In this document: one piece after another, positions 55-54,300 of the stretch
Position numbering within the stretch: the stretch's first letter is position 1
Layout: the number at the start of each line of letters is the position of its first letter
Source: an uncultured Gemmatimonadaceae bacterium
GTDB lineage: Bacteria; Gemmatimonadota; Gemmatimonadetes; Gemmatimonadales; Gemmatimonadaceae
Direction: 5' to 3'
Length of the DNA: 64,000 nt
Assembly: GCA_963740355.1 (NCBI GenBank)
Contig: CAVUDW010000002.1
Location: forward strand, 2,489,537 to 2,553,536
The notes under the pieces: generated by a model
The model's input: the letters and a program-made list of their open reading frames with translations, nothing else
Told to the model about the DNA's origin: nothing
The model's database searches: none
Made by a program: the position numbers and the translations under genes

Positions 55-267
55 GAACAAGATCTCTGACCCCTTGATCGGGCGCTACGATCAAGATCTC
101 TGACCCCTTGATCAGGCGCTAAGTCTTTGCCCGCCAATATCTTACACCGCGAAATCCCCGAACAAGATCTCTGACCCCTTGATCGGGCGCTAAGTCTTTG
201 CCCGCCAATATCTTACGCCGCGAAATCATCGAACAAGATCTCTGACCCCTTGATCCGCCTTGATCCG
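55..267. repeat. Tandem array of 71-bp unit repeat (4 core copies of GAWCAAGATCTCTGACCCCTTGATC)
   Basis: Cores at 55-79, 89-113, 160-184 and 231-255, with spacings 34, 71, 71. Near-identical 46-bp linkers at 114-159 and 185-230. A 10-bp duplication CCTTGATCCG at 248-267. Reverse complement of the core at 53441-53763. Confidence 0.95.
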
Positions 268-52032: not shown

Positions 52033-52791
52033 TCACCGCGTTGAGTGCGGACGAAAACCCATCGCCGTATTCAGCCAGCGCACGAGTGGCACCATCGTCC
52101 GAAACACGTCCTCGAGGCGATCAGGCAACGACGCCGACGTGACCTCGGCCTGTTTCAACGGGCACCCGGCGGTGAAGCTCTGGTAGCGAAGCCAGTCGCC
52201 TGCAGGATGATCCGCGTCGAATCCGCGCGGCATCCGCTTCAGCACCGCCTCCGTGGACAAGTCACCGAGCAACTTGCGGAATGGTCGCGCCTTCACGATC
52301 GCGTTGAATTCCTCATGCCCGACGTCGAGGGCGCCGCGAATGCGCTTCAGCACTGGTGACGGCGGCATCCAGACGCCACCGCCAGCAAAACAGGCACGTG
52401 GCTCGAGATGGAAGTACAGCCCGGCGCCACCATGTACGGCGTCCTGACCCACGTTGCCCTTCGAGTCGCGGTGGAAGAACCAGCAGGCGGCATTGGTCTT
52501 GTACGGTGCCTTGTTCTTGCTGAAGCGGATGTCACGATGGATGCGGAACATGCTGCCCTTCAACGTCCCTGTGATCTCAGGCATGAACGTGGCGAGCCGA
52601 GCATCCATCTCCTCGATCAATGCCTTCATCGGTTCGCGCAGCGACTGCTCGTAGGTCTCGCGACGAACCTCGAACCACTCGCGGTTGTTGTTGTCGGCAA
52701 GACCCTTGAGGAACGTGAATGCGTCGGTTGGGAAGCCGGTGAATTCCGTGTCGACGATCGCTGTCTTGCGGGCAGTGCCCGCCTTCTTCAT
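52033..52791 (-). CDS. DUF2461 (TIGR02453-like) protein
   Basis: NNNREWF, FRIHRDIRFSKNKAPYK, LKRMPRGF..DHP. ATG 52791 overlaps the upstream stop. Confidence 0.85.
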   Translation of the reverse strand: MKKAGTARKTAIVDTEFTGFPTDAFTFLKGLADNNNREWFEVRRETYEQSLREPMKALIEEMDARLATFMPEITGTLKGSMFRIHRDIRFSKNKAPYKTNAACWFFHRDSKGNVGQDAVHGGAGLYFHLEPRACFAGGGVWMPPSPVLKRIRGALDVGHEEFNAIVKARPFRKLLGDLSTEAVLKRMPRGFDADHPAGDWLRYQSFTAGCPLKQAEVTSASLPDRLEDVFRTMVPLVRWLNTAMGFRPHSTR

Positions 52792-53414
52792 CGCGCCCAT
52801 CCAGCTGGCCTCGGCAGGGTGAAATTTTCCGGACTGTTGGTGCGACCATACCAATCGGCGCCCATGCGAGACACGAGATCGAGCTTCTGCGGGTCGATGA
52901 TGCCGTCGGCACCAACGATCGATTCGTCGGCGTGCGCCGCCACCACTTCACCAAGGATGACGGCGCAGGTCGATGCGGATTCCGGGTAGAGCTGGAACGA
53001 TGCGAGCTTGCACTCGAAACTCATCGGAGCGCCGCGCACACGACGAGGCGCGACGGCGTGCGATGCGTCCGATGCAATGTCTGCGCGCTCGAATTCGCTC
53101 GTGTCTGCATCGAAGGCGAACGACGTGGCGTTCATGGCATGAACCATCGGGTACGCGACCAGGCTGACGACGAACTCGCCCGTATCGCGGATATTGCGTG
53201 CCGTGTCCTTCAGCGAGCCATCCGCGTGGTGCTGCACCGAGATCATGAGCGTCGGCGGCTTCGGCGTGAGCATCTGGAAGAAGCTGAACGGCGCAAGGTT
53301 GGCGACACCGTCCGTAGACAGGGACGACACCCAGGCAATCGGGCGCGGGGCGATGGTCGAGGCCATCCAAAAGTAGGATGTGCGGCGGTCCATCGCCGTA
53401 AAGTCGAGCAGCAT
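52788..53414 (-). CDS. Flavin reductase family protein
   Basis: PRPIAWVS, NLAPFSFF, KDTARNI...GEFVV, FECKL, SRMG. Confidence 0.9.
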   Translation of the reverse strand: MLLDFTAMDRRTSYFWMASTIAPRPIAWVSSLSTDGVANLAPFSFFQMLTPKPPTLMISVQHHADGSLKDTARNIRDTGEFVVSLVAYPMVHAMNATSFAFDADTSEFERADIASDASHAVAPRRVRGAPMSFECKLASFQLYPESASTCAVILGEVVAAHADESIVGADGIIDPQKLDLVSRMGADWYGRTNSPENFTLPRPAGWAR

Positions 53415-53440
53415 GCGGTTCAGGGAAGATGGCGTTCTGC

Positions 53441-53779
53441 GATCAAGGGGTCAGAGATCTTGATCGGGGGAATTCGGGCGTAAGCTATTGCACGGCATTC
53501 GCTTAGCATCCGATCAAGGGGTCAGAGATCTTGATCGGGGGAATTCGGGCGTAAGCTATTGCACGACATTCACTTAGCATCCGATCAAGGGGTCAGAGAT
53601 CTTGATCGGGGAGTAGAGTTCGGGCGCGATCAGAGTCAGCTATTCGCGCGGCATTCGCTTAGCATCCGATCAAGGGGTCAGAGATCTTGGTCGGGGGAAT
53701 TCGAGCGTAAGCTATTGCCCCACATTCACTTGAGCTCCGATCAAGGGGTCAGAGATCTTGGTCGGGGGAGATCTTGGTC
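53441..53779. repeat. Tandem array of 71-bp unit repeat (5 core copies of GATCAAGGGGTCAGAGATCTTGRTC)
   Basis: Cores at 53441, 53512, 53583, 53668 and 53739, with spacings 71, 71, 85, 71. Partial copy at 53768-53779. The linkers are similar to each other. Confidence 0.95.
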
Positions 53780-53851
53780 CGTGGCGCGGCGGGTGGACGA
53801 GCCCAGCATCGGTGCCAGGACACACGGAAGATCGCACGAAAACCTCCCGCG

Positions 53852-53893
53852 AAAAGACAGAGAGCCCAGCCGGATGGCTGAGCTCTCTGTCTT
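53852..53893 (-). terminator. Intrinsic terminator of ssrA
   Basis: Hairpin AAGACAGAGAGCTCAGCC-ATCC-GGCTGGGCTCTCTGTCTT then TT, immediately after the tmRNA 3' end. Confidence 0.8.
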
Positions 53894-53897
53894 GGCA

Positions 53898-54254
<357 letters not shown>

Positions 54255-54300
54255 GACATTGTGAACAGTAATGAGGATGGTGGCGCGACGCACCTCCGCG

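Follow-up and report, generated by a model that had tools for sequence, protein, structure and literature searches.

The tandem repeat array at positions 53441-53779 of this 64,000-nt stretch of DNA (hereafter the window) from an uncultured Gemmatimonadaceae bacterium lies beside the tmRNA gene ssrA and consists of 25-nt cores separated by linkers, mostly of 46 bp. It is probably (we put the probability at about 0.8) a cluster of a repetitive extragenic palindromic (REP)-type family that belongs to a REP-associated tyrosine transposase (RAYT)-like Y1/HUH enzyme of the TIRYT kind. This high-copy, extragenic family is physically tied to the RAYT-like gene and co-evolves with it. The core hairpin is supported by compensatory change, and the arrays are homogenised locally.

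A high-copy extragenic repeat family

The assembly comprises 5.45 Mb (65% G+C) in five contigs, and the window is the final 64 kb of contig C2. When up to one mismatch was allowed in the 16-nt heart of the core, 206 copies were found (104 forward and 102 reverse), and the reversed control gave none. With up to two mismatches the number was 222 (147 exact, 59 with one mismatch and 16 with two), arranged in 53 clusters of one to nine cores. In a k-mer count, the heart of the core was the most abundant 16-mer of the genome (149 copies). The core consensus is ccGATCAAGGGGTCAGAGATCTTGaTCgg, and GGGGTCAG is present in every core. An earlier note, made from the window alone, had proposed a genome-wide family resembling REPs or bacterial interspersed mosaic elements (BIMEs) and linked to a RAYT-like HUH transposase, and these counts bear out the first part of that proposal.

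All cores lie on the two large contigs, 116 on C2 and 106 on C3, and the three small contigs have none. Most of them (215 of 222; p about 1e-175) fall outside called genes. The gene calls are rough ones based on GC3 (G+C at third codon positions) with no annotation, and they give 86-90% coding sequence across the contigs and about 87% overall; a first gene caller, which gave 60-64% on the two large contigs and 60-72% over all five, was discarded. The cluster sites comprise 28 tandem, 16 convergent and 9 divergent spacers, and the genome totals are 2819, 722 and 722. Convergent spacers hold 16 of the 53 arrays compared with an expected 17% (p 0.016 by count, 0.054 by length), and arrays between tandem genes are sense in 18 cases and antisense in 8 (p 0.076).

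Neighbouring cores on the same strand are most often 71 bp apart (n=69), followed by 25 bp, where the cores abut (n=26), 72 bp (n=8) and 70 bp (n=2). Adjacent cores are co-oriented at 145 of 169 junctions and inverted at the other 24. Among the inverted junctions the '+-' order prevails over '-+' by 22 to 2 (p 3.6e-5), and this polarity equals that around the transposase gene described below. The '+-' pairs fold into long hairpins like those of REPINs, with DNA folding energies (dG) of -18 to -49 kcal/mol. With respect to replication, 131 cores are in the leading-strand sense and 91 are not, a bias that is nominal only, because cores within arrays are non-independent and gene orientation confounds the comparison. 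GC skew is positive on C2 and negative on C3 over almost their full lengths, so these two 2.55-Mb contigs look like the replichores of one chromosome. Each 25-nt core contains three GATC sites; the genome has 46,367 GATC sites, compared with about 17,600 expected from base composition.

A RAYT-like transposase gene bracketed by the repeat

The genome contains two matches to PF01797 (Y1_Tnp). One of them is a 236-aa HUH/Y1 open reading frame (ORF) at C2:1530271-1530978, on the same contig as the window and about 0.96 Mb from it. Arrays with 71-bp spacing bracket this ORF: one flank has four cores (+), and the opposite flank has three in inverted orientation (-). The earlier note had seen no cognate enzyme in the window and had advised looking for a RAYT/Y1 gene flanked by the units; the window indeed holds none, and the 236-aa gene with its inverted 71-bp arrays on both sides is such a gene.

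The protein matches the Pfam Y1_Tnp model with an E value of 2.9e-12. It scores 79.7 bits with the NCBIfam REP_Tyr_transpos model (cut-off 80) and 23.7 bits with the IS200 model (cut-off 55). The histidines of the HUH motif (H60 and H62) and Y120 (in YIDLNPV) are invariant in all 14 aligned homologues. In a profile search of solved structures, E. coli TnpA-REP (4er8) ranked first (E 1.8e-6), and ISDra2 TnpA had an E value of 5.6e-3. An AlphaFold2 model of the protein (pLDDT 86.8, pTM 0.85) also had 4er8 as its best match (E 5.9e-9, TM 0.77 on the target, 160 columns, 19% identity), with IS200/IS605 transposases next at about 1e-5.

Residues from about 145 to 236 form a helical extension, with three helices at 167-213 in the model, and the extension is conserved within the genus. 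Searched against Pfam, Bac_DnaA_C, HTH_23 and HTH_28 included, the extension of each of 14 members was without a match at E <= 1. Folded alone, it gave a poor model (pLDDT 60.6).

The gene is essentially single-copy, with one copy and one 34%-identical paralogue that has another repeat family. Inverted copies of another repeat lie on both sides of this second RAYT-like gene (C3:374499-375140; Y1_Tnp 33.9 bits), and a 15-nt motif of that repeat has 105 exact occurrences; judged by this arrangement, the paralogue and its own repeat are a second enzyme-repeat pair in the genome. Two other high-copy 16-mer families (about 96 and 80 copies) consist of GGGG-rich palindrome-like units, and one of them resembles the 23-bp units that flank RAYT orthologues of congeners. 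Since the genome has only two PF01797 genes, these two families are left without an identified partner.

Co-evolution of the repeat and the gene in related genomes

A homologue of the transposase (E <= 1e-5) is present in 15 of 20 genomes of the genus, this genome included. Eleven orthologue loci of congeners (50-59% identity) were compared. Five of them have variant inverted cores (GTTCAAG..CTTGAAC, TTTCAAG..CTTGAAA, GATCATG..CTTGATC and similar), four have inverted arrays of 23-bp units that retain GGGGACGGAG, and one has direct repeats only. At the last locus, which is cut off where its contig stops, the only repeat is an unrelated direct repeat of 25 bp, present on one side. The motif GGGG[T/A]C[A/G]GAG is retained in all 11 loci but the contig-end one. 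The orthologue of congener G007 (contig C6) has an insertion sequence (IS)-like look, with terminal inverted repeats of about 170 bp (1252-1420 and 2383-2551 of the locus); each of these contains two cores 144 bp apart with a homologous 119-bp filling.

In an alignment of 18 flanking cores from six related genomes, the 7-bp stem is paired in 88.1% of cells. Two of the seven pairs (1-25 and 2-24) vary on both sides, in 9 cells compared with 4.1 +/- 1.3 in shuffles; none of 500 shuffles reached this value, and slid controls were all lower.

The exact core (up to one mismatch) was found in 11 of 41 relatives searched, this genome included. After this genome, G007 has 79 copies, G018 60, G010 28 and G003 8; the remaining relatives with the core have one to five copies each, which may be chance matches or remnants. 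Most congener assemblies are fragmented and may have lost repeats, so absence of the core is weak evidence. A degenerate core pattern was found in one of 400 other genomes of the class, as a single match.

The two nearest homologues outside the genus are in a metagenome-assembled genome (MAG) of Gemmatimonadales (46% identity) and a Nitrospiraceae MAG (41%). At both loci GGGGTCAG occurs upstream on the + strand and downstream on the - strand, and the control orientation gave no match. At 16 more distant loci scanned for the motif, none was found at 15, and one had a single upstream match. The Gemmatimonadales homologue (positions 1501-2083 of its locus), with GGGGTCAG on both sides, contains two in-frame stops and may be a pseudogene or reflect sequencing errors.

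The arrays in the window

The array beside ssrA has five cores on the + strand between 53441 and 53763, with start-to-start spacings of 71, 71, 85 and 71 bp and linkers of 46, 46, 60 and 46 bp. The core pattern matched is GATCAAGGGGTCAGAGATCTTGRTC, with the layout GATCAAG-GGGTCAGAGAT-CTTGATC. Tandem Repeats Finder reports 53440-53769 with a period of 71, 4.5 copies and a score of 448. The features of the two arrays are as follows.

53441..53465, +: core 1, with 7-bp arms GATCAAG/CTTGATC and an 11-nt loop holding GGGGTCAG
53466..53511, +: linker module 1, 46 bp, with dyad-symmetric conserved TAA..T..A..TTA positions
53512..53536, +: core 2
53537..53582, +: linker module 2, 46 bp
53583..53607, +: core 3
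53608..53667, +: 60-bp linker, the 46-bp module plus about 14 additional bases
53668..53692, +: core 4, 3' arm CTTGGTC instead of CTTGATC
53693..53738, +: linker module 4, 46 bp
53739..53763, +: core 5, 3' arm CTTGGTC instead of CTTGATC
about 53764..53779, +: partial core (3' half only) at the array end, read by eye and in the half-core census
55..255, -: second array, cores at 55-79, 89-113, 160-184 and 231-255, 46-bp linkers at 114-159 and 185-230

The second array has four cores on the - strand with spacings of 34, 71 and 71 bp, and its 46-bp linker differs from that of the array beside ssrA (Tandem Repeats Finder period 71, score 301). Its position is directly 3' of ORF 271-1944 on the - strand, relative to which it is in sense orientation. 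Both arrays had been described in the earlier note, the first as five cores with 7-bp inverted ends and one linker of 60 bp and the second as inverted, with the same core and period and a diverged linker, and the coordinates agree. The window contains nine matches at up to two mismatches, and the mean in 100 dinucleotide-preserving shuffles was 0.00 (none of the 100 gave any), which excludes a chance origin of the core matches.

Half-cores are recurrent. In this genome 3' halves follow the last core (window 53764-53779 and 248-268), and in G018 (contig C96; locus 760-1760) 5' halves ending at GGGGTC lie upstream of full cores. This hints at a putative break or cleavage point within the loop; the predicted cut would fall in or beside GGGGTCA/GAGAT.

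The 46-bp linker and the 71-bp unit

The earlier note had described a near-invariant core and a linker homogenised within each of two loci, and the same pattern was found genome-wide. For linkers, identity is 0.885 when both come from one array (59 pairs) and 0.504 when they come from different arrays (2286 pairs), and linkers compared out of register, as a control, gave 0.228. The corresponding values for cores are 0.945 and 0.918. The nearest linker in another array has a median identity of 0.68 (range 0.43-0.93), and the single close pair is 1.5 kb apart.

Information in the linker is concentrated at A/T positions 7-8, 16-18, 23-24, 32-33 and 38-40. These are arranged as a dyad about position 28 (T16A17A18/T38T39A40, T24/A32) with a score of 3.88; the next centre scores 1.3, and none of 1000 column shuffles reached the score. 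The earlier note had spoken of a second palindromic module, and a conserved hairpin in the linker did not hold. RNAalifold gave no consensus structure for 30 array representatives with either RNA or DNA parameters, no register showed excess complementarity or covariation, and folding was no better than in shuffles (z -0.19 for DNA and -0.16 for RNA, with 1 of 30 and 2 of 30 below -2). The dyad is a pattern of invariant bases only, and not a hairpin.

Linker-like 46-mers outside the outermost core, with no core before them, were found at 18 of 73 5' edges and 1 of 33 3' edges (Fisher p 0.006), which indicates that the module belongs 5' of the core. The composite signature, in which the dyad and the core are combined, has 33 occurrences in this genome and none in 19 congeners. 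Among the three congeners with the exact core that were compared, 71-bp core-to-core spacing occurs once, and there it is summed from shorter spacings; repeat periods in other species are 23, about 57 or 144 bp.

It is possible, though we consider it unlikely, that the arrays are a host-maintained satellite, in which they would serve as phased sites bound by a nucleoid protein, a topology protein or the transposase-like protein through its C-terminal domain, and the transposase would be of historical relevance only. IHF and gyrase bind the BIMEs of E. coli. The linker length is held (69 spacings at 71 bp, 8 at 72 and 2 at 70) despite about 50% divergence, cores are more than 90% identical in arrays with diverged linkers, and the dyad speaks for the same explanation; as the linker does not form a hairpin, this symmetry is more simply read as a feature of duplex DNA. 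However, a host function would be very young, since the composite unit occurs in none of the 19 congeners and the array is missing from ten orthologous loci. The C-terminal extension also lacks the helix-turn-helix (HTH) families of Pfam, and the placement rules of the arrays, such as the excess in convergent spacers and in sense orientation given above, are weak. A related and equally tentative suggestion is that the linker is a dyad-symmetric duplex-DNA site of fixed length (TAA-N5-T-N7-A-N5-TTA) for a dimeric protein, which could be a nucleoid protein or else the TIRYT-type enzyme acting through its C-terminal domain.

Relation to known repeat-transposase systems

Di Nocera, De Gregorio & Rocco (2013) described RAYT-like genes with inverted flanking repeats that share GGGGWSAS and named them TIRYT/TIRtron (PMC3733652). 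In that description the repeat families occur as dispersed singles, dimers and clusters and are 'moderately abundant', and one family of S. maltophilia is self-complementary and closely spaced (PMC3733652). Quentin et al. (2018) regarded the TIRYTs as the probable equivalent of TnpA-REP subclass 2.1, whose long proteins have a C-terminal HTH-like domain with a target that is left open (PMC6006769). The present system shares with the published TIRYTs a RAYT-like Y1 gene that is longer than E. coli TnpA-REP (236 versus 165 aa), inverted GGGGWSAS flanks, here GGGGTCAG, and the dispersal of the repeat as singles, dimers and clusters. This likeness is one of motif signature and description rather than of direct sequence comparison. 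The earlier note could not assign the repeats to a known family, an opinion which the fit of GGGGTCAG to GGGGWSAS overturns.

The system also differs from the described TIRYTs in several respects. Its 222 cores put it among the larger populations of the type as described, the repeat is a true hairpin with compensatory evolution, and direct tandem units of 71 bp, each with a 46-bp module of conserved length, predominate. None of 14 members here showed the C-terminal HTH matches in Pfam that subclass 2.1 is reported to have. The core sequence was not found on either strand in the literature searched.

RAYT genes that are always flanked by inverted REPs are the defining layout of the REPtron in the account of Nunvar et al. 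(2010; PMC2817692). The 236-aa protein resembles the E. coli REPtron enzyme in fold and catalytic motifs, with 4er8 as the best structural and profile match, and its single-copy gene is likewise bracketed by inverted, high-copy, extragenic hairpin repeats. Higher-order composite arrays with conserved inter-REP motifs are a further likeness. Identity to 4er8 is only 19%, however, and the loop, not the sequence 5' of the stem, holds the conserved motif. The 22 '+-' inverted doublets fold as long hairpins as REPINs do, whereas such doublets are a minority here (24 of 169 junctions) and direct tandem arrays dominate; the alternating REPs of E. coli-type BIMEs likewise differ from the co-orientation of 145 of 169 neighbouring cores. 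For P. fluorescens SBW25, Bertels & Rainey (2011; PMC3116915) reported tandem arrays in which REPs of a single type are evenly spaced and share their orientation, as well as clusters beside each RAYT, and the present arrays resemble these. In the same report 61% of the SBW25 REPs are in doublets and arrays are exceptional (PMC3116915). Elements of the IS200/IS605 family share the Y1 HUH fold and subterminal hairpins inverted around the gene; in this genome, by contrast, the gene is single-copy, the ends are high-copy without the gene, and the protein appears nearer to TnpA-REP than to IS200 TnpA. On these sequence comparisons, the array is a REP-type family of a TIRYT-like RAYT system, which is a kind already known, with a composite 71-bp unit that is specific to this species.

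Proposed origin of the arrays

In the following scheme the action of the enzyme is modelled on E. coli TnpA-REP and the TnpA of IS200/IS605. The 25-nt core is the predicted recognition element, in which a stem of 7-9 bp would present the 11-nt loop with the conserved GGGGTCAG. The enzyme would bind the hairpin where DNA is single-stranded, at the replication fork, cut nearby via a phosphotyrosine link and rejoin the DNA, and in this way may have seeded intergenic DNA with cores and inverted doublets. The core would, in this species, have been joined to a 46-bp module on its 5' side. Sequence patterns suggest that the 71-bp unit then increased in number locally as identical cores took part in unequal recombination or replication slippage, which would give arrays of fixed period with linkers alike within an array and diverged between arrays. 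The '+-' polarity bias may reflect the ends of an ancestral gene-carrying element.

Several observations weigh against the assignment to a RAYT-like system. The match to the NCBIfam RAYT model is just below its cut-off (79.7 versus 80), and a single-sequence phmmer search of PDB with the 236-aa protein gave no match. The classical REP tag (GTAG or CGTC) is at neither end of ccGATCAAGGGGTCAGAGATCTTGaTCgg on either strand. The arrays are mostly direct (145 of 169 junctions), unlike the alternating REPs of BIMEs and the inverted doublets of REPINs. Conservation of the core is partly built in, because cores were found by allowing up to two mismatches in 16 nt, and besides this genome only one congener has more than 60 core copies. 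Binding, cleavage site and mobility of the enzyme are argued from analogy, and the divergence of linkers between arrays (median 0.68) leaves no sign of recent transposition of the 71-bp unit. The data fit old seeding followed by local tandem duplication better than such transposition. The earlier note had supposed that the family spreads as a unit and expands locally; the nearest linkers and the lack of the 71-bp unit in 19 congeners do not bear out the former, and local tandem duplication agrees with the latter.

A pure slippage satellite, in which a 25-mer palindrome arose once and spread by recombination and slippage with the Y1 gene as a passenger or target, would explain the homogeneity within arrays, the strict 71-bp period and the lack of evidence for recent movement of the unit between loci. 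We regard it as improbable, since slippage cannot explain how one core came to occupy 53 separate sites between genes, on both replichores. Moreover, 10 of 11 congener Y1 genes have their own variant repeats with compensatory stem changes, inverted wherever both flanks show repeats, and homologues in other phyla have GGGGTCAG in the same polarity.

It is still less probable that the repeats act as RNA-level elements (terminators, mRNA stabilisers, small RNAs of about 71 nt or a CRISPR-like array): many arrays lie directly 3' of a gene in the sense orientation (18 sense versus 8 antisense; e.g., window 55-255), and REPs of E. coli affect mRNA decay and termination according to published accounts (PMC2817692, PMC3733652), but the repeats have no Rfam match at E <= 1, no terminator or promoter was called in 53300-54000, the array beside ssrA runs antisense to the genes on either side, a T tract is lacking at the core hairpin, and a CRISPR array is ruled out by 'spacers' that are 88.5% identical within an array and homologous between arrays. 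A RAYT-like system of the TIRYT kind remains our preferred explanation.

The ssrA locus

The array is located between two genes, which are as follows.

52788..53414, -: flavin-reductase-like gene with a flavin reductase domain, start codon 26 nt from core 1
53898..54254, -: tmRNA gene (ssrA), found by ARAGORN and Rfam

In the region of the array, Rfam recognised the tmRNA alone. A hairpin followed by TTTTCG can be read by eye near ssrA at about 53851-53892 on the - strand, where the terminator scan made no call. A search of sequencing runs with 53300-54300 returned 20 runs, each with at most 0.36 of the sampled words; this value is the tmRNA gene's share of the interval, so none of the 20 runs contains the array.

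The gene order DUF2461 gene, flavin reductase gene, ssrA, GGDEF gene is conserved across the genus. A comparison of orthologous ssrA-flavin reductase loci for the presence or absence of the array, as suggested in the earlier note, gave ten loci without it. In these ten congeners a spacer of 45-258 bp without any core separates ssrA from the flavin reductase start, and here the spacer is 483 bp. This indicates that the array by ssrA is a lineage-specific insertion and expansion. No role for ssrA or the flavin reductase gene need be invoked to account for it.

A second tmRNA copy, 97% identical, opens the 29-kb contig C5 (C5:1-387; region compared, C5:1-1126), and after it comes a copy, 87% identical, of the GGDEF gene region that neighbours ssrA. 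Contigs C1 and C4 start within tRNA-like sequence, as read by eye, and C1, C4 and C5 hold none of the 222 cores. These three contigs may be islands, a second strain or contamination.

Conclusions

In sum, the nature of the array is settled in that the gene of its cognate enzyme was found and the family type is already in print; it is a rather ordinary selfish element of the bacterial REP type, and the composite tandem unit is a modest curiosity. For annotation, arrays of this kind beside ssrA should not be taken for CRISPRs, small-RNA genes or attachment scars of islands. If the linker were a binding site, an end-hairpin of a transposase would have been rebuilt in one species into a phased, BIME-like protein-binding satellite of 71-bp units, and the linker would be the first DNA target for the C-terminal domains of transposase subclass 2.1, which Quentin et al. 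(2018) left open. The species-specific 71-bp unit with its dyad-symmetric spacer is a convenient substrate for questions of recognition by the enzyme or by host proteins. The family provides a clean high-copy GGGGWSAS system, in which a true hairpin co-evolves with the enzyme across the genus, and it links the 'TIR' and 'REP' descriptions.

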